In this document: positions 12,430 through 62,759 of the stretch, one piece after another | Layout of the letters: every line of letters begins with the position of its first letter | How positions within the stretch are numbered: position 1 is the stretch's first letter | NCBI GenBank assembly: GCA_051294375.1 | Contig: CM119267.1 | Coordinates: 26,399,324 to 26,463,323 of the forward strand | DNA: 64,000 nt | Direction of reading: 5' to 3' | Source of the DNA: Paraspadella gotoi | Taxonomy: Eukaryota; Animalia; Chaetognatha | Made by a program: the position numbers and the translations under genes | The notes under the pieces: generated by a model | Told to the model about the DNA's origin: nothing | Databases searched by the model: none | Seen by the model: only the letters and a program-made list of their open reading frames with translations

Positions 12430-12869
12430 GGGTAGAGGGACCACATTGCTATCAATAGAAATAAAAAACTACAATCAATATATATTTATACATATTTACA
12501 CACATACACATATACATACATATATACAAGCACACAAATCAACAGAAAGAGACACTAATAAAAACATAGAGACAAAGAGACGCTAAAAAATAAATGAGAC
12601 GCTAAAAATGAAATGAGACGCTAACAAATACACAAAAAACTATATCACATAAGTATAAGAGTACATCACATATATAAAACAAAGAGTAAATCACGTATAT
12701 AAAAACAAAAAGACGCTAATAAAAAATGATAATAATAATAAAAACAAAGACGCTAATGAACAAATAAAATGATAACGATAATAATAATAAAAACAAAGAC
12801 GCTAATAAACAAAGAGACGCTAATAAAAATACCACATAAAAAATATAAATATGTGGTCCCTCAATACCC
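12430..12869. mobile_element. MITE-like element with internal gacgctaa repeats
   Basis: Inverted ends gggtagagggaccacat / atgtggtccctcaataccc. Confidence 0.5.
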
Positions 12870-14088
12870 AATACGAGATACCCTCATTGATTAAATAAGT
12901 TCCAATAGCCAATTTTAACCCGTTTAATTAAGTTTCCCAACTCTATAGTCCCATCCTCATTTAATGTACCCAGTACATTACCCAATAAGATTCGTTTTTT
13001 AAAACTTCCCATTTGCCACTTAATTTGGCCACCCAATAATCTTGTTCTAAATCCTTTCTCAAATGAATAATAATTTTTTTAAAAAATATAATTAGAAGTA
13101 CTAAAAGAAAGGCAAAAAATGTTACAATTGTTTCTAATTGGAAATTTTTACAATTTTTTCCAATCATAGCTTGTAACAGGTTTTATTTTTATTTGTATTA
13201 AAATTAAGTTATAGCTTCTAATTAAAAAGGTATTTTAATTTCACATGTTTATTATAGATTCAAAGATTTTTTTATGAATTTCATCTTAAATATTATTTAC
13301 TGCAATATGTAAATTAGATTAAAGTATTTTTATATACTAATTTGGATATTATAATGAGTACTATAATCTCATTTTCATATTGCAGTAATCATAATGAAGT
13401 GGAAATTCAAACAAAAAATACTTGAATCCCAATGTAATATGAAAATTTCAAAACTATTTCAAAATGAGAAGCCATATCTAAATTTTTAACTATATTCATT
13501 TTATCTATATTTAAAACAAATAAGTCTAAACATGTATGTTATTTGTTTCTATTTTAAAAATCGTTGTTTGTAAACAATACAAATTTTTTTCTCACAAACT
13601 AATTCACAACGCAACGAAAGAAAGCATTCACACAATACCATTTCCCTTGAAACTTAACAACTGAAGCCTCCGGAATGAAAACTAAAGCGTTCGGTCTTAG
13701 TATTTTAAATATTTTCAAATACTTTAATTCGAACGTTTCCTAAATAACAAAAACACATTTTTCACTATTTCAGAGTTTGTTCGAGATGCTCTCGTTAAGG
13801 TCCGATCAGTATTTTCACTATTATTAGAAATTTTTCGAGGTGCTCTCGTTAAGGTTCGATCGATTTTTGCCTCTGTATAAGTATTGTATATTTCTCTATC
13901 TCTGGTTCTCTTGCTTATTTCTCATGCGAAATAAATTCTTTGAAAGAAGATTCCTGCTTTTCGATACTAATAATTAAATATAAATTGTTTAATTTTTTCT
14001 TTTTTTGTTGTTGTATTTGATTAGCGGATTCGAAAACGAAAGTTTTATTACTTTTAAGAAAAAGGGTCATTCAATTCAACTTCAAAAT

Positions 14089-21990: not shown

Positions 21991-21991
21991 A

Positions 21992-22812
21992 TAGGGGTTG
22001 CCAAATGCCAAAAGTTGCTCGGATTTCAAATGAGGTCTCAGATAATATGTGGAGGCCTAAAAAAAGATGTTAGGAACAATCGCCATTTAAATAAGTTGAT
22101 CACTGGCCGTGCTACCCTGCCTTGAAGGATTTTGGCACACCTTTCACTTCATAGTTTATTGTGTCTAAAAAAGAAAGGTTTTTATGTCCACTTAAATTAT
22201 TAGTTGTAAAAGTATATAAAGTTAATTCAAATAAATTTTCAGATCTTAACTCCCTCTGGAGGCTCTGCTGCAGCATTTACAATATGCTGGAGGAGGTGGT
22301 AGCTATTAAAATAAAGAGTATATCTTTTGAGTGCTGATGGTACTATAAAAGGTTCCTATAAAATATATTCATTAACAAGCCTTTTAACTAATTTCATAAC
22401 CTTTTTTTGAAAATGCAAGTATGTCTACATCCTGGAGGATACTTCTTGTACAGTTTTTTATAATTACTTAAATTATGTACAAAATTTATATCTATTAATT
22501 AGATAGTAAGACAGTTTAATAAAAATAGATAAGATAAAAGTTTTTGGTAAATCTTAAATTGATTGACCAACAACTTTTCATGGGAGCCTCTTTTGAAGGA
22601 TTCTGAAAATTTATCTCCACACCCCATCAATTAAAAAAAAGGAAAGTTATGTTATCAAAAATAGCTTTAATAGCTGGCCAAATACTCGTAGTTACTTTTT
22701 TAATTAAAATTTTTTGAACAGCATTCTTTATACGACCTGTAAAGGCATTTCCAATATGCTGGAGGATGTGGACAAAGGCTTGCTGCTGATAAAGCTTTTA
22801 ATTAAAGAATAA
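21992..22812. mobile_element. One arm of the foldback/MULE-like element
   Basis: Nearly identical to 51806-52630. Confidence 0.8.
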
Positions 22813-22827
22813 TCTCTCTGCAACAAC

Positions 22828-25800: not shown

Positions 25801-27355
25801 GGAGATCCGAAGACGCCGCCGATTGAACGGCACGCCTAATCTCGAAAAGCGCCGAATTGAAAGAGATCGCCTGAATCGCTGCCACGTCCCGAAGAGGCGT
25901 GGCCAAAGCTTCTATACGTTCCACGGCCTGATCCGTGGAGAGACCCTCCTTGAGCTCCTCGGCCAACAGACGAAGCTCATCCGCGGCGTAAAGCGCCGCG
26001 TGTCCAGACGCACCCGCCTCCTGCATCGAACGCTGATGCTGACGAAAAGAGGCGTTAGGATGAGCGCCAAAGGCTGCTTCAAATTGATGGATTAAGCATC
26101 CATCTCGATCCGGAGGGAGGAATGAAGCCGGAGACGAGATGAGGGAGTCGCGAGACGAGAATCCCAGTGCCTCACCAACTCTCCAGCAGCAGAAATCTGA
26201 CGGAGACTGCGCCATTGATCGACGACCCACTCCGACGCCGAGACTGCCTTCTTGGCGGTAGGGAGGAAGGTGTTGAACCACCCTCTGTGTCGGAAGCTGA
26301 GTCCACCTCCCCCTCCTCGGAGGATTCGGCGTCCGGATCCGGGAAGGAGTGCTTCAACCGGAACTACGTTGCGGAGGCGAGATCTCTCGTGAGTGTGAGG
26401 CTGAGGCAGAAACCCGTGCAGGGATCTGGAAGCGGAAGGCGAAGCAAGGAGAAGCGACGAAGAAGCGGAGATGAGGAGCGGCCATCCGTCGATCAAGAAC
26501 CGTGACATGAACGTAAAAAAACACGAAAAAACAAAAACAGCATTAGATCAAATAAAAACGATCTAACAAAAACCCCTCCCTCCCCTTTCCAAATTATCCA
26601 ATTTAAAAAACATAAAAATGCAACCGGCAAAAACCCACACCCGCGAACCAAAAGAACCCAAACACCGGTGGTGAAAAGGGGTGGACGGCGGAGAGTCGTG
26701 GGGGGGGTCGATCAAGAATCGTGATTCCATTTGGAATCTAAGATTCTCTGATCGAACCCCCCCACGAATGCCTCAGTAACGAGAAAAAAGGAGAGCGCGG
26801 TGTAAAAAAAGGAAAGAAAAGAAATAAAATTTCGAAACAAAAGGAAAGCAGAGGGCATAAGCGAAAATATGCGAAATGACCTAAAAAATAAACTCCCCCC
26901 CCGGTGAGCTCACCGGCGAAAATCCTCCATTTCCAAACGCAAGAGCGTTGAAAATCCTTCATCTCCTTCAAACCCGTCAAGGTGCCTCAAATAGAACACG
27001 ACGACTTCCAAGCCTCCAGCCGCACGCAAGTCTTAAGGAAGAAACGCTTCTTGGCTGACCGCCCCCCAAACCGGCGTCGCCGGGTTGCGCCGCTTCGGTG
27101 TGCGCTGCCTGAGATGGCCGGAACCGAGGTAACGGAAACCGGTCTCCGAGGCGAAGGAGGAGGGGGCGGTGGAGACGCATTGCGGGAAAGTCCCGGTTCT
27201 TCCCCGCGCACCTCCGGGGTCCTCAACCCCCTTGAATTCGACGATTTCGACGAATGGCGATCGCCGTGTTTGTCGTGCGATTTTTCGCGCGACCTCTTAG
27301 ATTCCTCACGTACGAGATGCGAAGACATAATAACGACCGCCGAAATTTCGATAAA
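22828..27355 (-). mobile_element. DIRS-type retrotransposon, copy 3 (left end in 100-N gap)
   Basis: Basic ORF 27328-26987, ICR 26697-26772, gag-like 26508-25553, RT 25318-24650 (GFYSRIFFVPKKDGGWRPILNLKRLN, LFYIDDILI), RNase H (HINVKEF), MT-like (IDLFAT, LFPPPPLL), YR (TVNLHRSAIS, HPIVRRFLKG, ARRSSE, GSTRAMA, AGDWS). Confidence 0.92.
26697..26772 (-). other. DIRS ICR, copy 3
   Basis: cgtggggggggtcgatcaag-aatcgtgattccatttggaatctaag-ATT-ctctgatcgaacccccccacgaatgcc, reads as the joined right and left termini. Confidence 0.85.
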
Positions 27356-29493: not shown

Positions 29494-29735
29494 CGCCACC
29501 CGAATAGCTTGGTGAAACTCAGCACGTCACATTGGCTTGTACACTGTCCAATGGACAGCTAAGTACTCGTTCACCAACCGTTAGTTCCGGGTTCAATCCC
29601 CTCACGGTCACGCTGGTTAAAGTGATGGTTTCCGCATAAACACGCCAGTGACGTGGGGTCGTCAATGTAGGTCCAAAGCCCTGAGCGTTGGCTGTCGGGA
29701 CATGCCTCACTCCCTGGGCATCACATGTGTCCCCG
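29494..29735 (+). mobile_element. tRNA-headed SINE-like repeat family A, second copy (twister core partly deleted)
   Basis: Homologous to 10150-10388; B box GGTTCAATCCC; TAAACACGCC..GTAGG-TCCAAAGC-CCTG retained, P2' and P1 shortened. Confidence 0.7.
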
Positions 29736-29795
29736 TTGCCATAATAAAGAGACATAAATTATTGTTAAGTGTTAGTGACAGAACCGTTCAATATA

Positions 29796-29871
29796 AGCAG
29801 TCTCTGAGCTTTGGATCAGGCTGTAACACCATGTTACAGGCGGGTTAAGCGCCCCGTCCCTCTTAACTGCT
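29796..29871 (-). ncRNA. Candidate P5-type twister ribozyme (family C)
   Basis: Minus: agcagt-taa-GAGG-GA-CGG-ggcgct-TAA-CCC-GC-C-tgtaaca-tgg-tgttaca-GC-CTGA-TCCAAAGC-TCAG-AG-actgct. Confidence 0.65.
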
Positions 29872-30025
29872 AGAACCCCGGACCTTTGGGTTGGGAGGCG
29901 AATGACTTGCCTCCGGCACCAATGGTCGCTGATGAACGGTTGGTGGATTTTAGTCCACCATACATCTGCTAAGACCGATTGCAGTAATGAAAAAGTTTTG
30001 GAAAAAAGGCCTACTCAGTACTCAC

Positions 30026-30215
30026 CCATACACAGTTGGGCTCCAGTGGGATGGGTTCGGTAGTGGACCCTCCTGGATGGAAAATTGGGCAGGGAGGCGG
30101 GGCAGGCTGAACGCGCGGAGCGAGGAAGAAGGAAACAGAAGGGGCGTCACGTGATCCTCGATCGGGCGTTACCACGAAAACTCGCATTAATTGAGCGATG
30201 AAGACTTTAGTCGAT
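30026..30215 (-). CDS. SMG8: SMG8 exon 8
   Basis: AQLMRVFVVTP..PRVQPAPPPCPIF..NCVW; cag acceptor, GTGAGT donor. Confidence 0.9.
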
Positions 30216-30566
30216 CTGCAACCGAAGAAAAAACGAGCCCGGGGTGCGGGTCAGGCCGGTTCAAGGTTTTAAGTAACAATAACGGTAATTCAAATGTGTT
30301 GCGCCGCAGTGACTGCCTTATCACGAGTATTTATCGTGACATGATATGACGCTACTTGACATGACATGCGCCGAAATGATTTAGCCCGCTCAGCGATTAA
30401 GACTAGTCTGAGGACAGACAGTGGCGACGTGGCTTTGAATTGTACCACCAAAACTACTCGTGAATATTTTAAACTTGACTAATGAATACTTTGGCTACAC
30501 AAAAACTATTCGAAAAAGAAGCTTTGAGATTTGTTAACCAAAAGCAGATTAATTCTTTAAACGTAC

Positions 30567-30799
30567 CTGTCCCGGCAAGTGCATAGAGTGTAGAGAGGCA
30601 TGTCGGAAGCAACGAGACGTTCTGCGGGACTGGAGGCGGGGTTGACGGCGGCATCAGGGCAAGAGGAAATGAAACGATGACCACGCGGACATTCGTATTC
30701 GTAGCCGACGTAGGCACGAATCGTCGTCGTCGTTGTCGTCATCGCCTCAGATTCCTTCGACGAGACAGCGATCAAATTCTTTTTTTGGCGTAGGTAACC
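30567..30799 (-). CDS. SMG8: SMG8 exon 7
   Basis: RAYVGYEYECPRGHRF..DMPLYTLCTCR. Confidence 0.92.
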
Positions 30800-30869
30800 C
30801 TAAAAAAACATACGTTTTGTTTTAAAAGTTCTTTATTTCAGAATTCGTAAATTAAATAAAATCCGACAC

Positions 30870-31498
30870 CTTGGTGGTCTTGGCTTTTGGCGTGGACGTC
30901 TTTCCGCCAGCGGCAGCGCTGGCGTCGACCGCCGTTAGTAAATCCCAAGGAAGCAAAAAGTTTGATCCGGCGATGAATCCCGGCTGATCAAGTCCCTTCC
31001 CCGCGTTGTAAGATCCTGCGTTGCCAATGCGAGTCAAACTCCAAGAAGGAAACTTGACAGTAGCGCCCAACTGTGTCGTCGTCGTGAGGAGGCCTTGCAG
31101 AGTCACCGGCGACGGAGAAGAAGAGGAGGAAGAGAAAAGGGTGTTAGGCGCCGCCTCCTCGGCCGTCCAAGTCTTGGAAAATCTCCCAGATTCAGACTCT
31201 TCTTCTCCCTCTTCCTCGTCCTCCTCCCCCCCATCCTCGAATGGAATTTCCTCACTGCCGAGTGAAAAAGTCGTTTGCTCCGCCAAGAGAAACGTCGTCG
31301 TCGTCGTCGTCGTAGCGGAGAGAGATGTGGGATTCTTTTCCGCAGCCAAAGCGAGAGATGAATCAAGAGTTTGAACTCGTTTCTCTCCTCCCGGGGTGAG
31401 TCGAACCTCGTCACTCTGTTTCTCCTCTCCATTCTCTCGATCACGAAAGCCGGGTGACTCTCCTTGAACCAAAGAAAACTCGAATTTGTCGTAGATGC
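30870..31498 (-). CDS. SMG8: SMG8 exon 6
   Basis: Low-complexity acidic region then FPSWSLTRIG..YNAGKGLDQPGFIAGSNFLLPWD. Confidence 0.9.
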
Positions 31499-31561
31499 CT
31501 AAGAATAAAAAAGATGACTTTCGCTCTCAACATTCAACAATATCCACAAGTACAACAGAAC

Positions 31562-44388: not shown

Positions 44389-44518
44389 TTAAGCCCGTCT
44401 GGCGAGATAAAAATCAAATGTCGCGGGCGGATTCAGTGTTGAAACTTGGTAATACTTGGAGTGGGCATATTTCTCGCGCACAGCTTGTTGCTGATGATTG
44501 CTCGCAGACAAAAACGCT
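44389..44518 (-). CDS. CycA: Cyclin A, last exon
   Basis: AFLSASNHQQQAVREKY..KYYQVS..stop. Confidence 0.9.
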
Positions 44519-44638
44519 CTGATAAAAAAAAAAAAAATTTTTCCGACTTCAACATTTATCTGTGAGCAACACCACCACCTTTCATACTTGAAAATGTCCT
44601 TGAGACAATTCTCAACATCGTGAGCAACACTCGCATAC

Positions 44639-44922
44639 TTGTGAATATCCCTGAGACAATTCTGGAAATCCACAAAATTAATTCCCGATTTGAGAGCGAG
44701 TGACTCTGGCCAGGGCTCGTGGCCAAGGGTGTAGCGCGCCAGACAGACTGAAGCGGCGGCGATGGAGGAAGGGCTGTACTGGAAGAAAGGGTCTCCGTCG
44801 ACGAGGGTGAGTTCGGCGAGGAACTTGGAAAGAGACTCGGTCATCTCGTCAGAGGAGAACCACTTGTTGAAGCGCCGCAGAAAAAGGCACGGGGTTGGTG
44901 AAGCCATGTCAAAGTCGAGGAC
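44639..44922 (-). CDS. CycA: Cyclin A exon (C-terminal cyclin fold)
   Basis: VLDFDMASPT..LAELTLVDGDPFFQYSPSSIAAASVCLA. Confidence 0.92.
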
Positions 44923-45465
44923 CTTGAGAAAAAAATGTTGAATGAATGGAAGAACCGCAGGTTCAGCTTACAATCAGTCTTTTAGACAACGAAATCTGTA
45001 CTTCAATAATTACCATCTTTCTTGATCGCATTGGTTAATATGAATAGAGTTCCGATAACCGTTAAAATTTAACGGTTATCAACGGTTAATTATAATTTTA
45101 ACTTAACCGTTAATATATTTATTTTAACGGTTAAATTCGGTTAATTTTTAAATACAATTTTTGTTATTATTTGTTAGAAAATCTTTGATTTTTTGAAAAA
45201 AAAAAAATTTTTCCCGTCCTCTCTTATTCTCCTCTCCCTTTTTCACCATATTTTCCTCCCTCTCTCTCTTCTCCATTTTTTCAATGTTTTTTTTTATTAT
45301 AAACCCCAATCTTTTTTCTATCCTAATCTCTCTTATTCTTTCTTCCCCTAACTTTAAACCCTTATGTTCCTTTCTTTTTCTTTCTCTCTTTTCCCCTCCT
45401 TCTTTCCCCCCTTTCTTTTAATTTTTTTTTAAACTAATTTTATGCATTTACATCTTAGAGACAAA

Positions 45466-45779
45466 GTTTGAAATAATTGGCAATAACGATTTATTTTAAA
45501 GAGAAAACATACATGTTTTGGCTTTTTTACAAGCCTTCTTCAGCGTCAATTTAGTTTGTGAAAATATTAGACAGATTTTGTGTAGAAGAAGGGGAGAGAG
45601 AGAGAAAGGAAAACAGAGAGAAGGCAAAGTTTCTCTGTTTCTCGCTCTCCCCATCTTTTACACAAAATCTGTCTAATAATTTCACAAACTAAATTGACGC
45701 TGAAGAAGGCTTGTAAAAAAGTCGAAACATTACGTTTTCATCTTGAAAATAAATTGTTGTTGCCAATTATTTCAAACTC
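45466..45779. repeat. Long inverted repeat made of two divergently oriented hammerhead-bearing units
   Basis: About 150-bp arms; CTGAAGA-a-ggctt..aag(t/c)c-(G/A)AAAC motif on plus (45696-45736) and minus (45508-45548) strands. Confidence 0.8.
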
Positions 45780-46810
45780 TGTTATATTATAAAAAATTTA
45801 AGAATTAATAATAGAAGGAAGGAATCTTTAAAAAGACATTAAGGCTATTTAAAAATATCCTCCAGCTGCAGACTCGTTTTTTCTCCGATGAATCAGCACT
45901 GGGGAAAAGAGAGAGAGAAAGCTACATATAATTAAAGAGAAAAGAGAGAGAAAAGGAGACATAAAAATAAAATAAAGGATATTTGTTTGTTTTTATAAAA
46001 CGTAAACAAAACATATTTAATAACTGTCCTGACCCAATTTTAAGGACATCAATGATGAGAAGCTGAATATAAATTTTCAGCTTCATACACCCAAATTTAA
46101 TAATGAAAAAGGTGATCTATAATTTGGAACGACAACGACGACGACGCCACTTATGCGCAAAAGCGTTACAAGATCGTCGCAAACACAAAGCGATTGCGAC
46201 GATAAAAAAGGGGAAAAAAATATAATATAGCATGCCGTTTTTTTGCCTAACCAGTAGTATATCCAAAAAACGTGATAGATCCTTCGAGCATATTTTTCTT
46301 TAAAAGTTGCTCTTACCATGAATAATCGTTTTAAGTTTCTTCTTAATTTGGGGTGATACCGTAAATAGAATGATTGTCGTAAAAAAAATTCTGTCTTACC
46401 GTATTTTGAAAGCATAAAAATTCACCCAGTGAGTTCTAGGTTATAAGGAGAAAATAACTATTGCCAACCGTTTTTTTAAATAAAGAGTCTTTCATATTTA
46501 TCAGAGAGAAAAAAAGAAATAATAATTAATAATAATAATTAGTTCCAATTTCATTGTTGAAAATACCCGATTCAAAATCACTGCCTCAAACTTTTTTTTC
46601 CTAAAAGTTGCCAAAATGGTACTCTTTTATCATTAGAAACGGGTGGAGAAGTTTCTAACCAATCCTTAGTTCAGCCCAATTTGTGTTATTGTACAAAGTT
46701 AATCAAAATTGTAAGTAACAACTGAACAATATTTGAAAGAGTCGTTTCTTCCTAAATGCAACGTTTGTAAGCGGAACCCGCATTAAACTCCAATTCCTTC
46801 ATTTTTTCAC

Positions 46811-46988
46811 CTTGAGAATGTAGTGTTCCATCTTCAAGACTTGTTTCTTTGAATAAGTATCATCGGTGATATAGACAAACTCATTCAGATCTGGCGGATA
46901 AATTTCTTCAAACTTAGATGCGATGAACATCGCCGCTGTCCCCACCAGTTGGAGCTTGCCCCTCTGTACCGACATTAGAGAGAGGAAT
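46811..46988 (-). CDS. CycA: Cyclin A exon (cyclin box)
   Basis: [50 protein letters not shown]. Confidence 0.95.
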
Positions 46989-47718
46989 CTGGGGAGAGGC
47001 GATGGAAAAGAAATAAAAACAAGTTTGAGCAAGCAATGCCGGATCTGCCCACGATCAGATAATTAATTTATTAATTAATTAATATAAATTTTTTTCATTT
47101 GTTTCAAAATCGTGTTCCACTTTGTCTCGCCTCTCAATCACAAAACAACAACCTCGATCACAAAATTAATTAATTAATTAGAAATAATTAATAATTAATT
47201 TATTACATATTTATTAATAATTAATTAATGCAGCTTGAATTTACATTTAATATAAAAATAAAAAAACAATCAAATAGTGAAATAGATTGTTTGTTTTTTC
47301 CATTTTAACTCATTTCCACTTGGACGATTCCAACGAAATTTTATTTCCTGCTCAATAGCGCGGAGTATAAATACAAGAAATGATAAAGGACATCTTGTAG
47401 TTGTACCCTCCTAATTTTTTGAAACATGTAAAACTATTCCCTAAGATCAAAAAGTCAAAAATTCGCTTGGCCAATTTTCCCATTCTATCGATTTTATAAT
47501 GCGATAAAAAAGCAAAATAATCGGAAAAAAATTTAAAAATAAAATAAAAGTGGTTAGTATTATTAATTTAATTAAAATATAGCTAAATCCAAGTATATAA
47601 AACTCTTTAAAACTATATAAATGTAAAAAACTTGCATTAATTATTGTTTAAATATTATTTAAAAATTGTATTTTTTGGAAAAATACAAACATTTTTGAAA
47701 AAAAGGAAAGATGGTTAA

Positions 47719-48524
47719 GAAAAGGGGTCATTCAAATCAACTTGAAAATAGGCAAAAATGAAGTACAGATTCAAAAAGCTGAGCTCCTGGCGATTCCAAA
47801 AATGTAAACATTTGATGCATTCAACGTAATTTTATATCGGTTTTAATTATAATACAAAATAAAAAACCTATCTGAAGAGTTGCAGGTCAAACGAAAAGGC
47901 CAATCCATCTGATATTTTTTATGAATTTTTTATTAGTGAATTAGAAAATGTAATAGAAAGACATTTTTAAATTTCAAGTTGTATCTTTGAAAATGAAACA
48001 TTTTTAAACTTTAACCCTGAATTCTTTCTAACTGGAACACGTTTATCAAAATGTCTCACTAGCAATATTAAAAACATTTGTGAAAATGTAATAATCAAAT
48101 TTATAAATCAATATTATTGCAATCGTTTAGGCTGCAACTCTTTAAATTCAGTGTAGATTCAGTGTAGATCGAATATCTTTACCATCTATTTAACTAAATA
48201 TTTTGTTCAAGACTGGAAAACCAACAGAGTAACAAGATTAATTATTTAACTTTCCCCTTCTAAATTTGCCTCTACCGTGTTTTAACTTCTTACCTAGAAT
48301 TTTTTGACAACCAGATTGAAAAACAAATATTTAAAAAATGTGCTTACCGATTTAAATTAATAATTTTGTTATTTACCGATTTAAAAAAAATATTTAAAAC
48401 AGAATGTTTACCTATAAATAAAAACTTTTTTTTTGGTGGTTACTGGTGATTACGATGTATTTGTTGATGTATTAGCTCTAATACATCAAAGATTATGCAT
48501 TGTTAAGTTGAATGACCTTTCCTC
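47719..48524. mobile_element. Kolobok-like element, opposite orientation
   Basis: TTAA flanks; same TIRs as 39394-40209. Confidence 0.8.
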
Positions 48525-49062
48525 TTAAGCAGATAGTTTTATTCAAATATATATGAAATAAGGAGATTTATAACGGTTTTCATTTGTAAAAAGTTACTTT
48601 ATCTAATAATTTTTAACTACAAAAAATAAAGCAAAATAATAAATTAAAGCGTTCAGGAAACTAATGAATTTATGGATTTAGTCAAATGGTGTTTAAAACT
48701 TTCTCAATATAAATAAAAAGAAAAATAAATTGTAAGACATTATCCTGTTAAAAAGAGCTTCCAAGGTAAGAGGTGTTGTTTATGATACAAAAGCAATCAG
48801 ATCTGGGATGGGGAAATTCGGGAAGCTGGCAAAGACAGCTTTCTTTTTATGCACAATATTGGTAGACGGGACCAAAGCTTAAGACTTAGTAACGAGATTA
48901 ATTGTTTAACTCTCCCCTTCTAAATTTGCCTTTACCGTGTTTTAACTTCTTACCTAGAATTTTTTAACAACCAGAATGAAAAACAAATCTTTAAAAAATG
49001 TGCTTACCCATTTAACAATTTGGTTATTTACCGATTTAAAAAACAAGTTTGAGCAAACAATG

Positions 49063-49783
49063 TAGGACTAAGCTCTGACGAAAAAAGTCAGAGGTTTTTT
49101 TAATATATTCTTTGACCGGCCAATGTAGAATGATGGCAATATTGCTATTTTTAAGTTTCAAAAAAATCCGACCATAAATATAGAAAATATTAACCAAAAT
49201 CTTCGGAAAATCCACCCCTTCTTTGGAAGATTTTCGCCATAAAGATTTTTTCCGAATCTGACTCCCGGTTGAAAACTCTTAAAATTCCGATCGTTAGCTC
49301 CTCTTTTACTTTTACTTTAAATAAAAATTTCAGCAAAATGGACTAATTCACTTTAACATGATTGTATCATATTAAAATAACCAAATGAAATGTAAAGAAA
49401 AATTTTGAGAGCCCTTCAGACATATTGCTATCGGATTCCTGAATTCAAAGTTTATTGTAAAATGACAACTACCTTAAATGCGTTGACATTGTATTGAAGT
49501 TGAGAAATCCCTTTATTTTATATATAAAAATTGCATCAAAAATATTTTCCTGAGCGAACCAGTCCATTTGAATCGAATGGTTCGATGTCAAAATGATGGT
49601 TATTTGTCAAAAGAAAAAAAATGCGAGCCCTTCAGATGTAACAGGATCGGAATCGAGTGTTTTTACATCTATTTTTTACCTGAATTTTTCCCAGGGGCGT
49701 TTACATTATTTGGTAGTCAGATTTTAACGAAAATCTCCATTGAAAAAGTCTTCCTCGATTTCTAAGAACGACGTAGACTCCTA
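49063..49783. mobile_element. Non-autonomous DNA element with TAGG..CCTA ends inserted in a HINE head
   Basis: aacaatg duplicated on both sides, splitting gagcaaacaatg|tcggatctgc. Confidence 0.7.
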
Positions 49784-50488
49784 AACAATGTCGGATCTGC
49801 CCACGATAATTAATTAATTAATAATTAATTAATAATTAATTCAAGTTAATTATTTAATTAATTAATAATTAATTTATTCAAGTTTTTTTTAAAATTATTT
49901 AATTAATTAGGTAATTAATTAATTAATATGATCAGAAATGTTTGTTTTGATTGATTAATTGACTAATTAATTAATTATTAATTAATTAATTGACTAATTA
50001 ACTGATTAATTATTTGATTAATTAATAATCTTGCATTTACATTTAAAATAAAAAGAAAATCAATTAGTGAAATAGGTTCTTTGTTTTTTCCATTTAAACT
50101 CATTTCCACTCGGAAGATTCCATCGAAACTTCATATACAGCTCAATCACACACTTCCCTACCCACACACAAAATTTCATTCCAATCCATCCATCCAATCA
50201 CGAGTAATTGGTGTTTTTTGCTAAGGTGGGACGGACGGACGGACAGACGTTTTTTTTTGCATAATTTATCATAATTCGATGTTCTGACATGATATAAGTG
50301 AGTGCCCGACAATATTGAGGGGGCGGACCGACGGACCGACAAAGTGAATTATAGAGTCGGGATCTGCTGATAAGCAGATCCGACTAAAAACTTTATACCA
50401 AAGCATGCAACATTAGACCAGGAAAGAATGGCATGGATTTATTGACGCATTCACACTTCATCCTCCAATCACTTTCTCTGCTAGTAAC

Positions 50489-50646
50489 CTGTCGATGTAG
50501 TTGACGGCAAGGAAGAGAGTCTCGTCGTGCAGCTTGTACTCGTCCGACACCTCGACGAGCCAGTCCACAAGAATCGCCCTCATGTTCATGTTGATATCCG
50601 GCTGCTTCAACATATACTTGGGTTTGGGTCGAGTTTTTTTCTCAAA
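50489..50646 (-). CDS. CycA: Cyclin A exon (MRAIL helix)
   Basis: [43 protein letters not shown]. Confidence 0.95.
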
Positions 50647-51805
50647 CTGAAAATCGGAGGACGAAATGTTAAAAATTTTAAATTTGACGTCCCGGCTTTC
50701 ATTCTTATCGGTAAACAAAAATCTCAACCGGAAAATTCAAGTTATATTGGTTTTATTGCGTCGCAGTTACAATGTGATCGTATTTCCAGATGATTATTTG
50801 ACTTATAAAGTATAAAACAAATAATAGCATCTTATAATTAAGTATAATCTCAAATTGAATTTTAAAAATATCACATGACTACACAAATATGAAAAATATG
50901 CACTAAGATTTAGCTCTCAGAAAAAAAAAGATAAATATACGTCTGGTAGTATTAATATTAAGAACAAAAAATATTTTGTTCATATTCTTATTGGAACAGA
51001 AACGGAAAACATTATATTTTTAGTAATATCTTTACAAAACGGTATATTTTTTAAATGCCTATTCTGAAATTTTTATTAAAGATTCATGTTCGTAATAAAA
51101 ACTGGCGTGAAAAATAGAAATAAAAGTCAAAATACTTAACTTCTTATCTCTCTCTAAAATGACTAGTATATGAAACAAGTTTGAGCAAATAATGTCTGAT
51201 CTGCCCACGATCATTATCGGTAATTAATTAATTCAAGTTAATTTATTAATTTTATCCGAAATGTTTGTTTTTAGGTCTTTTCGTCACTAACCACGACAAA
51301 AGCAATGACGATTACAATAATGCCGATAACGATTGACTTGATTGAATAATTAATAAATTGATTGATTGAATAATTAATTAATAGCTAAATAAATTGATTG
51401 ATTGAAAAATTACAGGTAGTGATTCAAAACTTAGAAAATCCGTATCACTATATCTTTTTTTATTTTGTGACGCATCGGGTGCATTTAAAAAAAAAAAATA
51501 ATTGAAGATACTAAACCAGACCTTGTTCTAACTATTAAACCAGTGCGAAAAGCACTTCTGCAAAAACCATTCCTGCCACATCAATTAAAAGAATGACAGC
51601 TGCTTTTCATAAACGCTTGTGAAAGATCAAAAATTAAAATGTTGCTGCAGCTGAAATATTTATATATTTCAGCTGTGTACAATGCACTTTGTTACGACCA
51701 TGCATAATAACCCCAAGAGTATAGGCTCTTTATATATGTGGCCACTTGAATCTAAACTGAAACCTGAAATCTTTTGTTTCTCTGTTCCACTGGAAGATGG
51801 CTCAT

Positions 51806-54800
51806 TAGGGTGTGCAAATGCCAAAAGTTGCTCGGATTTCAAATGAGGTCTCAGATAATATGTGGGAGGTCTAAAAAAAGATGTTAGGAACAATCGCCAT
51901 TTAAATAAGTTGATCACGGGCCGTGCTACCTTGCCTTGAAGGATTTTTGGCACACCTTTCACTTCATAGTTTATTGTGTCTAAAGTAAGAAAGGTTTTTG
52001 TGTCCACTTAAATTTATTAGTTGTAAAAGTATATGAAGTTAATTCAAATAAATTTTCAGATCCCAACTACCTCTGGAGGCTCTGCTGCATCATTTACAAC
52101 ATGCTGGAGGAGGTGGTAGCTATTAAAATAAAGAGTATATCTTTTGAGTGCTGATGGTACTATAAAAGGTTTCTATAAAATTATATTCATTAACAAGCCC
52201 TTTAACTAATTTCATAACTTTTTTTGAAAATGCAAGTATGTCTACATCCTGGAGGATATTTCTTGTACAGTTTTTATAATTGCTTAAATTATATACAAAA
52301 TATATATCTATTAATTAGATAGTAAGACAGTTTATTAAAAATAGATAAGATAAAAGTTTTTGGTAAATCTTAAATTGATTGACCAACAACTTCTCATGGG
52401 AGCCTCTTTTGAAGGATTCTGAAAATTTATCTCCACACCCCATCAATTAAAAAAAGGAAAGTTATGCTATCAAAAATAGCTTTAATAGTTGGCCAAAATA
52501 CTCGTAGTTACTTTTTTAATTAAAATTTTTTGAACAGCATTCTTTATACAACCTGTAAAGGCATTTCCAATATGCTGGAGCATGTGGACAAAGGCTTGCT
52601 GCTGATAAAGCTTTTAATTAAAGAATAAAATCCATATTTTTTATTAAAATATGGTCATATAAATGATAGACTCAATCATACCATTACTTCTAACCAAGGT
52701 GTGCCTACATCTTTGTAGATTCTTCATGTACAGACTGCTTGAAGGATAAATATCTTTATTATATTATTATAAATATATATTTTAATCATAATATGATAAT
52801 ATCAGATAAAGCATCCAGCCTGAGTCAACCTAAGAATAATATATCTAAAAAATAATAAAATATCCTATAATAAAATAGCTAAATCTATTTACTTTAAAGC
52901 TCAGTTTTTTAGGTTTTTCTTTTAAAATGTTATGGAGTATTATAATTTTGAATATATTTTAAATGCTCATCAATTCTTAATTTCCCTATGCTGATATATA
53001 AAAAAGTGATTACTTGATGGATTGGTTTATTAATTTTTTGATTAATTGATTGAGTGGTCAAATAATTAATTAATATGTAGATGGTTGATTATTCATTTAC
53101 AGATTGTTTGAATGATGGGATATCTGCATCATATGATTATAGATGAATATGTTTACTATTAAAACTTGATAAAATATGATTTCATAAATAATCACTTGAT
53201 ATCATATATAAATAAAAAAAAAAATTTTATAATCCACTTTGTCGGTCCATCACTCCGCCCACTCAATCTTGGCACTCAGTCACTTAAATCATGTCAAAAA
53301 ATTGAATTATAATAAATTCTGAAAAAAAATTATATCCATCCGTCTGTATCTATCCATCCCCCTTAGCAAAAAATTGCAATTATTCGTGATTGAATGGATG
53401 GATTAAAAAGTGTATGATTAAACAGGTATAAAGTTTTGGAAGAATCAGAAATGAGTTTAAATGAAAAAAACATAAATCACATTTACCACAATCTTTTTAC
53501 TAATTTTAACCTATAGAGAAAAGCAAAGTTTTTGAATGTGTTACAACGAATTTATTTGAAAATACGGACATGTTTCGGCTCACATTTCTATATCCTAATA
53601 ACAACAAAAACGAAAGGTTTATCGCAGCATAATTTTAACAATTGGATGGATAGATTGAGATGAAAATTTTGTATGGGTAGGAAAGTGTGTGATTGAGCAG
53701 GATAAAAAATTTCAATGGAATTGATGAGTGGAAATGAGTTTTCATAGAAAAACCAAAATAAAGTTGCCTTGAAGTTTTATTAATTATGCTTACTCATGAA
53801 TGTTTTAATAAAATAATTTCAGTGAAAAAATGATGCAATTTAAAAAAAATTATAAAAGGTGAAAAAATTATGTAATTAAAAAAATGAGGCAAATTATAAA
53901 AATGATGTGAATTAAAAAAATAATGCAAGTTAAAAAGATGATGTGAGTTTAAAAAATAATGTAAGTTAAAAAAATGATGGACGGATGGAGAAAAGTGTTT
54001 AACGTCCGCAGGTTTTTGAGAGGCATTATTTCTCTCTCTCTGGACTTTTCTGACGTTAAATTAATCGCGATATCTTTTATCTTCACCTTCAATATTTTTT
54101 ATTTGTGGGAAACGGGCAAGGCAGCAGCCAGATATCATCTCATCATCGAATCCCACTGCCACGGTCGTGTTTTGTCATGACCGGCGTAATATTGATGTTC
54201 TGATATGATTTAAGTGAATGAACACCCAGATTCAGGGTTCGGATGGCTGGACCAACAAAATGGATTATATAAAACTTTTTTTACTGATATGAAATTGGTA
54301 CAACCAATATAAAAATTATCCATTCATTTAATAAATAAGCTATCTTGCCCCTGACTTTGGACAGGCTTTGGTGGTTTAAGGCCTCCATCACTCTTACATA
54401 TATATAATATCAAATGATTATTTCTGAAATCATAATTTATCAAGTTTTAATAGTAAATATAATAATTTATAATCATATGATACAGATATTCTATACTTCA
54501 AACAATCTGTAAATGAATAATAAACCAACTATAACAATGTTACATGGTGCTGCAGACAACGATATTACGAGGTGTTGCGGATTCCAAGGATGAGATGCAG
54601 CAGATAGATCAGGATGCTACAGAGCATAAAATGCGAACGGGGACACAGATGCAGCCGGGGATTGGGTCAAGGGGTGCATGCCAGCGCTGACGCATTATGC
54701 CACTAATAAAAATTTGTGGGCAAATTGTAGGGACTGTAAAAAGAAATGAAAAGACGGAGCTGACTAAGATTTGATTTTTTTTTCCTCTTTTTGAAACTTA

Positions 54801-56210
54801 GCAAACTGGAGCCATAGATGTAAAAGTATTAAACCTACTACTACCCCTCCTACTCCATTGTTGTACATCGGCAATACATTCGTTGAGTTTGCAAAGATGG
54901 TTATTAATTATAGGGCGCACAGAACAGCGACCAGTGCTAAGTTAATAATATATTAATTAATTATTTAACCACTTGATCAATTAATCAACAAAGTATTAAA
55001 CCAATAAATAAAATAATTATTTTTTTTATATATCAGCATAGGGAAATTAAGAAATTATAATCATTTGGAATAATTCAAATTTATAATACTCAATAACAAT
55101 TTTTTAAAAAACCTAAAAAACTAAGCTTTAAAATATATGGATTTAGCTATCTTATTACAGAATATTTCATTATTTATTAGATATATTATTCTTAGGTTGA
55201 CTCAGGCTGATTGCTTTATCTGATTTTATCATATTATGATAAAAAATATATTTATTTATAATAATATAATAAAGATATTTTATCCTTCAAGCAGTCTGTA
55301 CATGAAGAATCTACAAAGATGTAGGCACACCTTGGTTAGAAGTAATGGTATGATGAGTCTATCATATATATGACCATATTTTAATAAAAAATAAGGATTT
55401 TATTCTTTAATTAAAAGCTTTATCAGCAGCAAGCCTTTGCCCACATCCTCCAGAATATTTGAAATGCCTTTACAGGTCGTATAAAGAATGCTGTTCAAAA
55501 AATTTTAATTAAAAAAGTATTTGGCCAGCTATTAAAGCTATTTTTGATAACATAACTTTCCTTTTTTTTTAATTGATGGGGTGTGGAGATAATTTTCAGA
55601 ATCCTTCAAAAGAGGCTCCATGAAAAGTTGTTGGTCAATCAATTTATAATTTACCAAAAACTTTTATCTTATCTATTTTTAATAAACTGTCTTACTATCT
55701 AATTAATAAATATAATTTTGTACATAATTTAAGTAATTATAAAAACTGTACAAGAAGTATCCTCCAGGATGTAAACATACTTGCATTTTCAAAAAAAGGT
55801 TATGAAATAAGTTAAAGGGCTTATTAATGAAAATAATTTTATAAGAACCATTTATAGTACTATCAGCACTCAAAAGATATACTCTTTATTTTAATAGCTA
55901 CCACCTCCTCCAGCATATTGTAAATGCTGCAGCAGAGCCTCCAAAGGTAGTTAAGATCTGAAAATTTATTTGAATTAACTTCATATACTTTACAACTAAT
56001 AAATTTAAGTGGACTCAAAAACCTTTCTTACTTTAGACACAATGAACTATGAAGTGAAAGGTGTGCCAAAAATCCTTCAAGGCAGGGTAGCACGGCCAGT
56101 GATTAACTTATTTAAATGGCGATTGTTCCTAACATCTTTTTTTAGGCCTCCACATATTATCTGAGACCTCATTTGAAATCCGAGCAACTTTTGGCATTTG
56201 GCACACCCTA
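51806..56210. mobile_element. Foldback/MULE-like element with long (~1.5 kb) inverted arms
   Basis: Ends tagggtgtgc / gcacacccta; 9-bp duplication atggctcat at 51797-51805 and 56211-56219. Confidence 0.85.
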
Positions 56211-57363
56211 ATGGCTCATCTATCCAAAACCTTTTGTTATTCAAATTCAAACTGACTGTTTACTTTATTGATTGTTTGACTGAGATTGATCAGTCTGGTT
56301 TTTCCTGCTTAATACATGAACACTCATGATATTAACTCATTTTTATTACTCGATAAATAATGTAGCCAATACATTAACTCTGTGCAAAAACTCATGAATT
56401 ATTCTCTCAATCAAATTAAACCAATCAATTGAATTAAATACAATTCGAATCTCGGATCCCATTTTCCCTGCAATGTCGCCACTCTGGAAATATATTCTTC
56501 ATGTCAACATCTTAGTCATGTGACCCGGCTGTTGTCATGTGACCTCGTTAACGTTGTGGCTATCTCAGGCACATGCCACACATATGTCAATAAATGGAAT
56601 CTGAGAACAATATAGTAGACTGCAGCAATGGATTTTTGCCCAGTAGCAAAAATATAAGGAAGTATTTATCTTTCATCTGATGCTGAGATGATTGCATTAA
56701 GTAATTTACTTGATATTTTATACAGAGAGTCCCAACTACATCAGTTATTGATTTCATAATCTCACAGAGATGGCACTCAACCAGAGTGACCACTACAGTA
56801 TGAACTTAAGAAAAAAAATTTTTTAACAGCATCTTAAAATTGCAGCAGTTTAATGGCCATAGCATAGTAAAGATAAGATGTCCTAGTAAATATTTCTAAA
56901 TAGAGTTCTTCATTTGCTCTCTTTAGAATTTTCCTTTTAGCATAGAAATGAGCTACTAGCGTGCATAAAAACTGCATATTGTAGGTTTTAGGTTTGCTAC
57001 ATTCGCTACCTGCAGCATCCTTATAAATGGCCCTAATTAACTCGGGCTTGAGCGCATGTTTTCCCGACTTAGAATATTAGTTATTCCTATTCTTAATAGC
57101 CTTCTTAATAATATAACATACTGCTAGGGAACATTAACATAATTAGTTTTTGAACATTTTTTAAAATATGAAAAATCTGCAATAAAAGTCTTTTGTCCTT
57201 TTTACAACCAAATTGACTTATGATGTTAGATTTTGATTAAATTAATTTTTCTCAAGCATGGAAGTATTTTAATATTTAACAATATAAAAGAAATGCTTAA
57301 AAATATTTTTAAGAAATTAAAATTTTTAAAAATGGATTCTGATGAAGATTAAAAAGTTAGATA

Positions 57364-58054
57364 TGTGGATAAGGCGCTAAGTGGGCTGAAGATGACTATC
57401 CGTAACTTCTATAACCCCCTTTAGTAGCCATGGAATGGGTCCTGGGCTTGGAACTAGGCTTGAGGGGTTGCCACGCCCCCAAGGCGGCTTACGGCCGTCC
57501 TCACGCTTCCCACAGGGTAGGTACCGGGTTGGGATTGAACCAGGTACCTAGTGGTCATGAGCTGATGGCTTTACTCAATGAGCCACCGGGTCAGGACTGA
57601 AGGTGTCATGCTTATAGGCGGGGTGAACCTAGGCAATGCCCGACTACATGCCACACAGATTGTAACCCACCCTGCACTGCTTCCAGTGGAGGGGAGGGAG
57701 GGAGCAATCTTCAGCACGTCCATGGGCCTGGAATCAGAAGGGGGAATACGCTCGACAGGATGGGCTCACCAGTGTGGATAAGGCGCTAAGTGGGCTGAAG
57801 ATGACTATCCGTAACCTTTATAACCCCCTTTAGTAGCCATGGAACGGGTCCTGGGCTTGGAACCAGGCTTGAGGGGTTGCCAAGCCCCCAAGGCGGCTTA
57901 CGGCCGTCCTCACGTTTCCCACAGTAGGTACCGGGTTGGATTGAACCAGGTACCTAGTGGTCATGAGCTGATGGCTTTACTCAATGAGCCACCGGGTCAG
58001 GACTGAAGGTGTCATGCTTATAGGCGGGGTGAACCTAGGCAATGCCCGACTACA
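57364..58054 (-). mobile_element. Miniature LTR-type element (TRIM/retrozyme-like): two ~285-bp direct repeats each with tRNA-like box and twister-like core
   Basis: Repeats 57364-57648 and 57773-58054 start TG and end CA exactly at homology boundaries; GATA on both flanks; TGGTGAGCC PBS-like motif 1 nt after the minus-strand 5' repeat. Confidence 0.7.
57843..57923 (-). ncRNA. Candidate P5-type twister ribozyme (family B); twin at 57434-57515
   Basis: Minus: tggg-aa-(A/G)CGT-GA-GGA-cggccg-TAA-GCC-GC-C-[P3 ttggggg/ccctcaa]-G-CCTGG-TTCCAAGC-CCAGG-A-cccg; T1 GGA/TCC. Confidence 0.65.
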
Positions 58055-58568
58055 GATAAAGGTTAATCCTACAAATTTCAAAAACTTCAATGATAAATGG
58101 GCTAAAATTTAAAAAAACTTTAAAAAATCATTATTATCATTTAAATTTTATAGTTTTTGTTAATTTTCATAGATAACTTATTAAAATTTCAAAAAGTTGT
58201 ATTAATAACCTTCCTTTAAATTTTCAAGCTCTATCAGAATCCATTAAAATTTATAAAAAAAATTTTTGACATTATATAGTATTTGGATAATATAAAATAG
58301 CTTCCATGCGTTTAACTATAAAATAAATCTTAAATTTTTCGTGATTTTCACGATCTTTAATAAGCAAATTAACAATATTTATACCGGACTTCTGTTAGTT
58401 TGTAACCTGTTCCGTCTTAATAATTAGTAGTGTTTTTAAGCTCTAAACTGGCGCAGAGCAATAAAACCAATATTGCATTATTTTTAATAGCGCAGCATAT
58501 TGAAAAAGCAAGAGGAAAATAAAACCTATATCAGAAAGAGAAANNNNNNNNNNNNNNNNNNNNNNNNN

Positions 58569-61500
58569 TAATAAAAAAATAAGGATTTTATTCTTAATTA
58601 AAAGCTTTATCAGCAGCAAGCCTTGCCCACATCCTCCAGAATATTTGAAATGCCTTTACAGGTCGTATAAGAATGTGCTGTTCAAAAAATTTTAATTAAA
58701 AAAGTAACTATGAGTATTTGGCCAGCTATTAAAGCTATTTTTGATAACATAACTTTCCTTTTTTTTTAATTGATGGGGTGTGGAGATAAATTTTCAGAAT
58801 CCTTCAAAAGAGGCTCCATGAAAAGTTGTTGGTCAATCAATTTATAATTTACCAAAACTTTTATCTATCTATTTTTAATAAACTGTTTACTATCTAATTA
58901 TAAATATAAATTTTGTACATAATTTAAGTATTATAAAACTGTACAAGAAGTATCCTCCAGGATGTAAACATACTGCATTTTCAAAAAAGGTTATGAAATA
59001 AGTTAAAGGGCTTATTAATGAAAATAATTTTATAAGAACCATTTATAGTACTATCAGCACTCAAAGATATACTCTTTATTTTAATAGCTACCACCTCCTC
59101 CAGCATATTGTAAATGCTTGCAGCAAGGCTCCAAAAGTAGTTAAGATCTGAAAATTTATTTGAATTAACTCTATTACTTTTACACTAATAAATTTAAGTG
59201 GACTCAAAAACCTTTCTTACTTTAGACACAATGAACTATGAAGTGAAAGGTGTGCAAAAATCCTTCAAGGCAGGGTAGCACGGCCAGTGATTAACTTATT
59301 TAAATGGCGATTGTTCCTAACATCTTTTTTTAGGCCTCCACATATTATCTGAGACCTCATTTGAAATCCGAGCAACTTTTGGCATTTTGGCACACCCTAA
59401 TGGCTCATCTATCCAAAACCTTTTGTTATTCAAATTCAACTGACTGTTTACTTATTTGATTGTTTGACTGAGATTGATCAGTCTTTGGTTTTCCTGCTTA
59501 ATACATGAACACTCATGATATTAACTCATTTTTATTACTCGATAAATAATGTAGCCAATACATTAACTCTGTGCAAAACTCATGAATTATTCTCTCAATC
59601 AAATTAAACCAATCAATTGAATTAAATACAATTCGAATCTCGGATCCCATTTTCCCTGCAATGTCGCACTCTGGAAATATATTCTTCATGTCAACATCTT
59701 AGTCATGTGACCCGGCTGTTGTCATGTGACCTCGTTAACGTTGTGGCTATCTCAGGCACATGCCACACATATGTCAATAATGGAATCTGAGAACAATATA
59801 GTAGACTGCAGCAATGGATTTTTGCCCAGTAGCAAAAATATAAGGAAGTATTTATCTTTCATCTGATGCTGAGATGATTGCATTAAGTAATTTACTTGAT
59901 ATTTTATACAGAGAGTCCCAACTACATCAGTTATTGATTTCATAATCTCACAGAGATGGCACTCAACCAGAGTGACCACTACAGTATGAACTTAAGAAAA
60001 AAAATTTTTAACAGCATCTTAAAATTGCAGCAGTTAATGGCCATAGCATAGTAAAGATAAGATGTCCTAGTAAATATTTCTAAATAGAGTTCTTCATTTG
60101 CTCTCTTTAGAATTTTCCTTTAGCATAGAAATGAGCTACTAGCGTGCATAAAAACTGCATATTGTAGGTTTTAGGTTTGCTACATTCGCTACCTGCAGCA
60201 TCCTTATAAATGGCCTAATTAACTCGGGCTTGAGCGCATGTTTTCCCGACTTAGAATATTAGTTATTCCTATTCTTAATAGCCTTCTTAATAATATAACA
60301 TACTGCTAGGGAAAATTAACATAATTAGTTTTTGAACATTTTTTAAAATATGAAAAATCTGCAATAAAAGTCTTTTGTCCTTTTACAACACAATTGACTT
60401 ATGATGTTAGATTTTGATTAAATTAATTTTCTCAAGCATGGAAGTATTTTAATATTTAACAATATAAAAGAAATGCTTAAAAATATTTTTAAGAATTAAA
60501 ATTTTTAAAATGGATTCTGATAAGATTAAAAAGTTAGATATGTGGATAAGGCGCTAAGTGGGCTGAAGATGACTATCCGTAACTTCTATAACCCCTTAGT
60601 AGCCATGGAATGGGTCCTGGGCTTGGAACTAGGCTTGAGGGGTTGCCACGCCCCAAGGCGGCTTACGGCCGTCCTCACGCTTCCCACAGGTAGGTACCGG
60701 GTTGGGATTGAACCAGGTACCTAGTGGTCATGAGCTGATGGCTTTACTCAATGAGCACCGGGTCAGGACTGAAGGTGTCATGCTTATAGGCGGGTGAACC
60801 TAGGCAATGCCCGACTACATGCCACACAGATTGTAACCACCCTGCACTGCTTCCAGTGGAGGGAGGGGAGCAATCTTCAGCACGTCCATGGGCCTGGAAT
60901 CAGAAGGTTGGAATACGCTCGACAGGATGGCTCACCAGTGTGGATAAGGCGCTAAGTGGGCTGAAGATGACTATCCGTAACTTCTATAACCCCCTTTAGT
61001 AGCCATGGAACGGGTCTGGGCTTGGAACCAGGCTTGAGGGTTGCCACGCCCCCAAGCGGCTTACGGCCGTCTCACGTTTCCCACAGGGTAGGTACCGGGT
61101 TGGGATTGAACCAGGTACCTAGTGGTCATGAGCTGATGGCTTTACTCAATGAGCCACCGGGTCAGGACTGAAGGTGTCATGCTTATAGGCGGGGTGAACC
61201 TAGGCAATGCCCGACTACAGATAAAGGTTAATCCTACAAATTTCAAAAACTTCAATGATAAATGGGCTAAAATTTAAAAAAACTTTAAAAAATCATTATT
61301 ATCATTTAAATTTTATAGTTTTTGTTATTTTCATAGATAACTTATTAAAATTTCAAAAAGTTGTATTAATAACCTTCCTTTAAATTTTCAAGCTCTATCA
61401 GAATCCATTAAAATTTATATAAAAAAATTTTTGACATTATATAGTATTTGGATAATATAAAATAGCTTCCATGCGTTTAACTATAAAATAAATCTTAAAT

Positions 61501-61707
61501 TTTTCGTGATTTTCACGATCTTTAATAAGCAATTAACAATATTTATACCGGACTTCTGTTAGTTTTGTAACCTGTTCCGTCTTAATAATTAGTAGTGTTT
61601 TTAAGCCTAAACTGGCGCAGAGCAATAAAACCAATATTGCATTATTTTTAATAGCGCAGCATATTGAAAAAGCAAGAGGAAAATAAAACCTATATCAGAA
61701 AGAGAAA
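58569..61707. repeat. Near-identical duplicate of 55382-58543 across a 25-N gap (probable assembly overlap)
   Basis: Differences mainly single-base indels; includes second copy of the mini-LTR element at 60541-61219. Confidence 0.85.
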
Positions 61708-62603: not shown

Positions 62604-62759
62604 TGCGGATAAGGCTCTCAGTGTGGTAAAGAGTGCTACCCGCAACTTCTTTAACCCCCCTAACGGCCATGGAACGGGTCCTTGGCATGGAACCAGGCTT
62701 GGGGGTTTTCCAAGGCAGTTTACGGCCGTCCTCATGCTTCCCGCTGAGTAGGTACTACA
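62604..62759 (-). mobile_element. Short solo-LTR-like relative of family B lacking the tRNA module
   Basis: tgcggataagg..ctaca; homologous twister-like core with P5 agcggg/cccgtt. Confidence 0.6.

Follow-up and report, generated by a model that had tools for sequence, protein, structure and literature searches.

A non-coding mini LTR element in Paraspadella gotoi with a tRNA-like promoter and a twister-derived motif in each LTR

We analyzed a 64,000-nucleotide stretch of the Paraspadella gotoi genome, hereafter the window. Its minus strand carries exons of an Smg8 gene at 29500–31500 (Pfam Smg8_Smg9 at 30560–30799) and of a cyclin gene at 44392–50736 (Cyclin_N and Cyclin_C), which we take to be cyclin A-like. 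Repeated sequence includes a direct duplication of about 5 kb with 97–100% identity at 9000–18400, GC-rich retroelement remains at 19500–26300 with a reverse transcriptase frame at 24653–25384 (RVT_1), presumably DIRS-like and no candidate for a Gypsy partner, and nested inverted repeats at 51865–56213 that form a large foldback structure. On the minus strand at 57364–58054, direct reading of the sequence identifies a 691-bp non-coding mini LTR element of the TRIM kind, the features of which are collected in Table 1.

Table 1. Features of the mini LTR element and of its related copies in the window
Feature	Position	Strand	Basis or remark
Whole element	57364..58054	-	Sequence; ends fixed in other insertions; empty site skips 695 bp
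5′ LTR, 282 bp, TG..CA	57773..58054	-	Sequence
3′ LTR, 285 bp, TG..CA; G-to-A mismatch in P4 at 57455	57364..57648	-	Mismatch absent from most other copies
Internal region, 124 bp	57649..57772	-	Sequence
Target-site duplication GATA, left	57360..57363	.	Sequence; empty-site joint 57358 to 58054
Target-site duplication GATA, right	58055..58058	.	Sequence; empty site
PBS-like sequence TGGTGAGCC	57758..57771	-	Starts at 57771, one base past the 5′ LTR
Polypurine tract position	57651..57656	-	Interrupted in the window copy; most others read six G
TATAA upstream of the tRNA-like head	58018..58022; also 57612..57616	-	Putative function
A box, 5′ LTR	57980..57991; also 57574..57585	-	TRGCY present (TGGCT); YGG of most Helenus absent
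B box GGTTC..	57938..57947; also 57532..57541	-	44 nt after A box start
P1 palindrome CGGCCG	57901..57906; also 57492..57497	-	Unchanged in all 5 window copies
P5-type twister motif, 5′ LTR; predicted cut 57900/57899	57844..57922	-	Descriptor, alignment, Rfam loose match
P5-type twister motif, 3′ LTR; predicted cut 57491/57490	57435..57513	-	Same motif as 5′ LTR
Predicted 409-nt unit between cut sites	57491..57899	-	Predicted from the U of the UAA loop at 57900 and 57491
Second copy, same insertion	60541..61219	-	Within duplication of 55382–58543 at 58569–61707
Older partial LTR, 76% identical	62604..62755	-	Twister core kept; tRNA-like head missing

A first-pass annotation of the sequence had described two TG..CA repeats of about 285 bp with a 124-bp spacer and GATA on both flanks, together with a PBS-like sequence one base past the minus-strand 5′ repeat, and direct reading confirmed each of these features. 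Alignment of the two LTRs shows 6 substitutions and 3 gap columns. The PBS-like sequence opens with TGG and agrees with the tRNA-Trp type of Kojima Fig. S2 at 9 of its first 10 positions, making tRNA-Trp the closest, if imperfect, match for a putative primer.

We assessed other copies of the element through contigs from four of 11 public sequencing runs placed on 57200–58200. In run X1, contigs exit the element into differing flanks at 57364 (51 contigs), 57649 (50) and 58054 (40), and flank agreement among contigs that leave at the LTR ends is 0.39–0.42. These contigs leave at the LTR ends into unrelated flanks and thus represent many insertions with fixed ends. Two further X1 contigs preserve the empty site, linking 57358 directly to 58054 and removing 695 bp, which corresponds to the 691-bp element plus one 4-bp GATA copy. 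The annotation saw no clear polypurine tract; this is correct for the window copy and does not extend to the family. Among the variants listed (40 of 226, unphased), most other copies carry C at 57653 and 57655 (run X1, depth 306,820/307,381), which gives a minus-strand polypurine tract of six G before the 3′ LTR that the annotation had missed, and most other copies likewise carry C at 57455, the position of the P4 mismatch in the 3′ LTR of the window copy. The locus is an insertion of a high-copy LTR element with fixed ends, a 4-bp duplication, a PBS-like sequence and a family polypurine tract. Two biofilm runs also contain a small share of element sequence, with 14 contigs in X10. Run X6, tentatively an RNA run, has tables almost the same as those of DNA run X5 and was therefore set aside as a source on expression.

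Two further stretches of the window contain related sequence. The element at 60541–61219 was rejected as an independent insertion, being near-identical to the first and lying in a duplication that takes in the flanks, so the two are one insertion present twice. Comparison of 55382–58543 with 58569–61707 gives 97% identity with 18 mismatches and 71 gap positions across an N gap; this 3.1-kb tandem duplication shows mostly single-base gaps and is likely an assembly overlap or an uncollapsed haplotype. The older LTR at 62604–62755 lacks the head between its TG and the region past the B box, and its flanks show no 4-bp duplication. Set against the young copy, the old one shows a single difference across the 25 bases of the core and P1 and 18 differences across the 62 bases of the tail (Fisher p = 0.01), a comparison of one pair of copies in which about two of the tail differences may be sequencing errors.

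Each LTR carries a tRNA-like head, in which ARAGORN called no tRNA. The Pol III promoter spacing and the numbering of twister helices used here follow in part general knowledge of the field. The TATAA, A box and B box named by the annotation are present in both LTRs (at 58022/57616, 57991/57585 and 57947/57541, respectively), apart from a 5′ LTR B box with one C fewer than was written. Its observation that the minus strand contains no T4 run inside the element is also correct and extends to TTT; T5 is first encountered 9 nt into the flanking sequence. Among dinucleotide shuffles of the 409-nt unit, 58% have no T4 and 1.7% have no TTT, so the absence of T4 alone is weak evidence.

This architecture matches the Helenus elements (TRIMp3), mini LTR elements with a tRNA-like promoter and 4-bp duplications (Kojima 2024; PMC10886601). 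Like Helenus, the element is shorter than 1 kb, non-coding, and carries tRNA-like A and B boxes in each LTR without a functional tRNA; it has a PBS-like sequence in the expected place, a family polypurine tract and a 4-bp duplication as in animal Helenus families. The paired LTRs, promoter boxes, polypurine tract and duplication make this a likeness of architecture. Unlike most Helenus elements, it extends about 165 nt after the B box instead of a few tens of bases, contains no T run, and carries a twister motif. The annotation knew of no described example that combines a tRNA promoter, a twister and LTR-type ends. The mini LTR element with a tRNA promoter is already known as Helenus, and the twister is the new part: in the accessible text of PMC10886601, a term search finds no mention of twister and finds "ribozyme" only in a reference title, and a term search of the 108,717-character supplement, in which line wraps can hide matches, found no twister L4. 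In searches of open-access full text, twisters were found neither within LTR elements nor as dimers, and Helenus was not linked to any ribozyme.

To define the twister motif, we compared its parts with type-P5 twisters (RF02684). The 5′ LTR contains, in order, P5, P2 (two of three pairs), GAGGA, the P1 six-mer, UAA, T2, P3 (8 bp), P4 (5 bp) and L4. All conserved L1, L2 and L4 bases and both pseudoknots are present, with T1 formed by GGA and UCC. The likeness to type P5 covers element order, GAGGA, UAA, T1, T2, P4, L4 and the 3-nt P2 strand, and the differences are a 6-nt palindromic P1, a broken third P2 pair, an insert in P3 and a score below the Rfam cut-off. A descriptor combining the conserved bases and P4 matched at one place in the 64-kb window and, when the 409-nt unit was dinucleotide-shuffled 20,000 times, in 1 of the shuffles. 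The U residues of the UAA loops at 57900 and 57491 uphold the 409-nt distance between predicted cut sites given by the annotation. We rejected a P1-type reading in which the purine run further downstream supplies the 3′ strand, because P2 and P1 would then fail to abut that strand.

Rfam searches, suggested at the outset as a check, gave a qualified result. At the gathering score, no model matched within the element; in a loose search, the score for Twister-P5 was 16.8 bits (E = 1), short of the 37.6-bit cut-off, the P3 insert being a further departure from the model. Neither search matched a hammerhead. The P5 twister-like core claimed from the sequence therefore stands as a twister-derived motif and not as a clean match, and as judged from sequence it lies outside strict Rfam Twister-P5 membership on score, P1 and P2. 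A covariance model built from 60 phage twisters matched the P4/L4 half alone (21–22 bits, E about 0.003).

We next compared the motif with natural examples. P5-order phage twisters from 108 + 76 loci, plus 7 genome loci, gave 176 distinct motifs, of which 166 have a P4 of at least three pairs; 144 of those also have at least three P2 pairs and form the comparison set. Because the phage set was retrieved with patterns in which the loop bases were fixed, it is informative on pairing and lengths and not on base conservation. Across the 144 motifs, T1 pairs GGG with CCC in 95, GGA with UCC in 46 and other bases in 3, and the element follows the GGA/UCC rule. A 3-nt P2 strand like that of the element occurs often among natural motifs; of the 85 with such a strand, 77 are fully paired, and the third pair is C-G in 74 of those 77 helices. 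In the element, by comparison, the third P2 pair is unpaired in five of five window copies (C.C in four and U.C in the old one), and run X1 contained no G-to-C variant at this pair at 3 in 100, the only two such places lying elsewhere. P1 measures 6 nt against a minimum of 8 nt among the 144 phage examples. P4 closes L4 with 5 bp in the 5′ LTR and has one mismatch in the 3′ LTR of the window copy. Pairing of T1, T2 and P5 holds in each window copy that has letters at these positions, with one two-sided change in P5, and the pairing of P3 and P5 is maintained while the P3 loop varies among the copies. Pair counts on the five near-identical window copies were no better than shuffles (315/500), the copies being too close to give power.

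The matched GGA/UCC rule, the common 3-nt P2 strand and the descriptor frequency of 1 in 20,000 together indicate that the motif is almost certainly derived from a twister. Whether young copies cut is a separate question, for which we predict activity with fair confidence. In the rice twister, mutational analysis showed that P1 can be dispensed with and that 33 of 69 single helix mutants retain activity above 0.8, and it identified T1 and T2 as the sensitive parts (PMC5113685); both are intact in the window element.

The P1 palindrome had not been noted in the first reading of the sequence. Alone, CGGCCG forms 1 bp closing a palindromic tetraloop at +4.1 kcal/mol, and two copies form a 6-bp duplex at −10.7 kcal/mol. 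Hammerheads that act as dimers have this same geometry of one base pair and a palindromic tetraloop, and the two LTRs may therefore form a double twister. The axolotl hammerhead of this design cleaves efficiently only as a dimer (PMC7229834), and in the axolotl retrozyme and Penelope-like hammerheads the cut-site helix likewise consists of one pair and a palindromic loop, with the repeats occurring in twos (PMC7229834, PMC6765202). Those systems differ in carrying another ribozyme class in non-LTR elements, and the dimer is experimentally supported there and predicted here. By this analogy, pairing of the 5′ and 3′ LTR palindromes could exchange GAGGA strands and create two P1-type twisters back to back. 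The palindrome can also arise simply by loss of a hairpin loop.

Folding predictions with ViennaRNA, which omit pseudoknots, gave a pair probability of 0.85 to a local hairpin that traps the UAA loop versus 0.095 to the inter-LTR duplex. Minimum free energy folds of the twister region have z-scores between −0.6 and +0.7, and the 409-nt circle, again folded without pseudoknots, is 64% paired (z −0.5 against 150 shuffles) and thus not highly self-paired, unlike the circular RNA that characterizes LTR retrozymes. On the minus strand, 57832–57838 can pair with 57900–57906 (the P1 six-mer and U-1) over 6–7 bp, an arrangement kept in the old copy that could be a blocking fold or the true cause of six-mer conservation.

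A second ribozyme class appears in the same position in two published Helenus families. By visual inspection, the LTRs of Helenus-2_SyJa and Helenus-2_SyUm from Synergus wasps (PMC10886601, DataS1) contain a type III hammerhead after the B box, composed of an open stem III with GUC, a 7-bp stem I, CUGAUGA, stem II and GAAA, with loops that, also by eye, are complementary over 12 nt. The hammerhead goes unremarked in the accessible text of PMC10886601 and, on this visual reading, would make these families an animal LTR retrozyme. The wasp families share with the window element a long tail past the tRNA-like head, no T run and a ribozyme motif in the slot; their tRNA-Trp PBS is the type that the PBS-like sequence of the window element most resembles, and a 15-nt stretch near the LTR end agrees at 13 positions when aligned by eye. 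Unlike the window element, they have full hammerhead stems and an interior of several hundred bp. The presence of a twister and a hammerhead in the same Helenus slot argues that the slot has a job.

We tentatively favor a reading, drawn from these sequence features, in which the element is a Helenus-type TRIM that works as a Pol III-driven LTR retrozyme and replicates through the predicted 409-nt circle. Pol III would very likely initiate in the 5′ LTR, at its tRNA-like head, and transcribe through both LTRs, because no T run occurs before the flank. The twisters would then probably cut at 57900/57899 and 57491/57490, with about half of that expectation falling on a variant in which cutting needs pairing of the P1 palindromes of the two LTR copies into a double twister. 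These cuts would leave a 5′-OH and a 2′,3′-cyclic phosphate and no terminal repeat, so closure would fall to a host RtcB-type ligase, a step that is reasonably likely if cleavage occurs. A Gypsy-type reverse transcriptase, primed by tRNA at the PBS, would run round the circle and rebuild two LTRs, and a Gypsy integrase would make the 4-bp duplication. The retrozyme model likewise holds that double cleavage removes R and that a circle is then required (PMC4918200), and RtcB is the ligase of animal retrozymes (PMC7229834).

In the main rival reading, the motif is the dead remnant of a twister captured once by an ordinary Helenus-like TRIM and carried since as a passenger after loss of P1 and a P2 pair, with the element replicating through a linear RNA that has an R region and Pol III ending in the T-rich flank. 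The third P2 pair broken throughout the observed copies, a P1 shorter than in any of the 144 natural examples, the competing local hairpin over the cut site and the low Rfam score all fit such decay, and Helenus families devoid of a ribozyme do replicate, among them fish families whose tRNA part is not followed by a T run (PMC10886601). Speaking against a passenger are the better preservation of core bases than of the tail between subfamilies, the persistence of P3 and P5 pairing despite change in the P3 loop, and the other ribozyme class, identified by eye, in the same slot in wasp Helenus-2. We hold this explanation to be plausible but somewhat doubtful. It is unlikely, in our judgment, that an active twister merely trims the ends of the transcript, cutting slowly or partially and mainly in the 3′ LTR as a stand-in for a terminator; the linear RNA would then keep an R region of about 100 nt, from the tRNA-like head to the cut site, undergo normal strand transfer and need no circle. 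With a weak ribozyme, many transcripts would keep their 5′ copy intact, the element has no T run, and ribozymes trim retroelement ends elsewhere, as do twister variants at the Perere-3 5′ end (PMC8501958). The presence of the motif in both LTRs speaks against trimming, since a dimer would cut both sites together, as does the P4 mismatch of the window copy, which falls in the 3′ LTR. Strand transfer would presumably proceed even if transcription ran on into the flank, so the element would not need a substitute terminator.

Very improbable is a locus that contains no LTR element at all and holds either a 1.7-mer of a tandem SINE-like ribozyme repeat with chance TG..CA ends, such as a non-LTR retrozyme or a Schistosoma-type tRNA-ribozyme SINE, or a chance match to twister. 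Described animal ribozyme repeats are indeed tandem and have no LTR, PBS or polypurine tract (PMC7229834, PMC7761336), and schistosome SINE-like repeats are known to place a hammerhead after a Pol III promoter (PMC6765202). The fixed ends at LTR boundaries in dozens of contigs, the exact 4-bp empty site and the family G6 tract oppose this view, which the contig ends and empty site largely refute, and the descriptor frequency of 1 in 20,000 shuffles opposes a chance twister.

The favored reading of a Pol III-driven LTR retrozyme places the element close to known circular-RNA systems. Plant LTR retrozymes (Cervera 2016; PMC4918200) also carry a ribozyme in both LTRs, a PBS, a polypurine tract and a 4-bp duplication, are non-coding, and yield a unit-length RNA between cut sites, which in the window element is predicted from sequence. 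They differ in using a type III hammerhead and a tRNA-Met PBS and in forming circles of 600–1000 nt seen experimentally, and no internal tRNA promoter is described for them in the accessible text of PMC4918200. By strict definition, tied to the hammerhead class, the element is not a retrozyme; it would work like one if it cleaves. Schistosoma Perere-3 (Liu 2021; PMC8501958) offers a twister with weakened P1 in an animal retrotransposon, although that twister is single and of type P1, and the element, which is autonomous and non-LTR, carries it at its 5′ end. Animal retrozymes have been described in reviews as having no LTR, PBS or polypurine tract (PMC7229834, PMC7761336), and an animal element that unites LTR, PBS, polypurine tract and ribozyme would, if the reading is true, extend circular-RNA LTR retrotransposition beyond plants, give twister a second biological job beside Perere-3, and join TRIMp3 with retrozymes.

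A bolder reading, which extends the analogy with wasp Helenus-2 and dimeric hammerheads and which we think improbable, is that LTR retrozymes driven by Pol III exist in animals and have a slot in which the ribozyme can be exchanged, filled here by an obligate double twister that forms when the two LTR copies pair through the P1 palindrome. Only full-length transcripts would then be cut, at both ends together, and solo LTRs and the finished circle would remain uncut. Action as a dimer would be a mode new to the twister and could be useful for making RNA circles that stay closed.

We also scanned microbial and viral sequences for relatives of the motif. Prokaryote genomes searched for twisters with a 6-nt P1 gave seven matches, none with both P2 and P4 sound. 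A first scan of viral contigs gave one match with poor P2, and the exact 14-nt core gave 11 matches in viral contigs, none of them a twister. Three matches from a pattern scan of metagenome contigs were rejected as chance by inspection and BLAST. Among the IMG/VR loci L113–L186, a 3-bp P2 is about as frequent in P5-order twisters of phage contigs as the 4-bp P2 of the Rfam P5 consensus, and several twisters of the 3-bp kind often occur on one contig, with five in L171.
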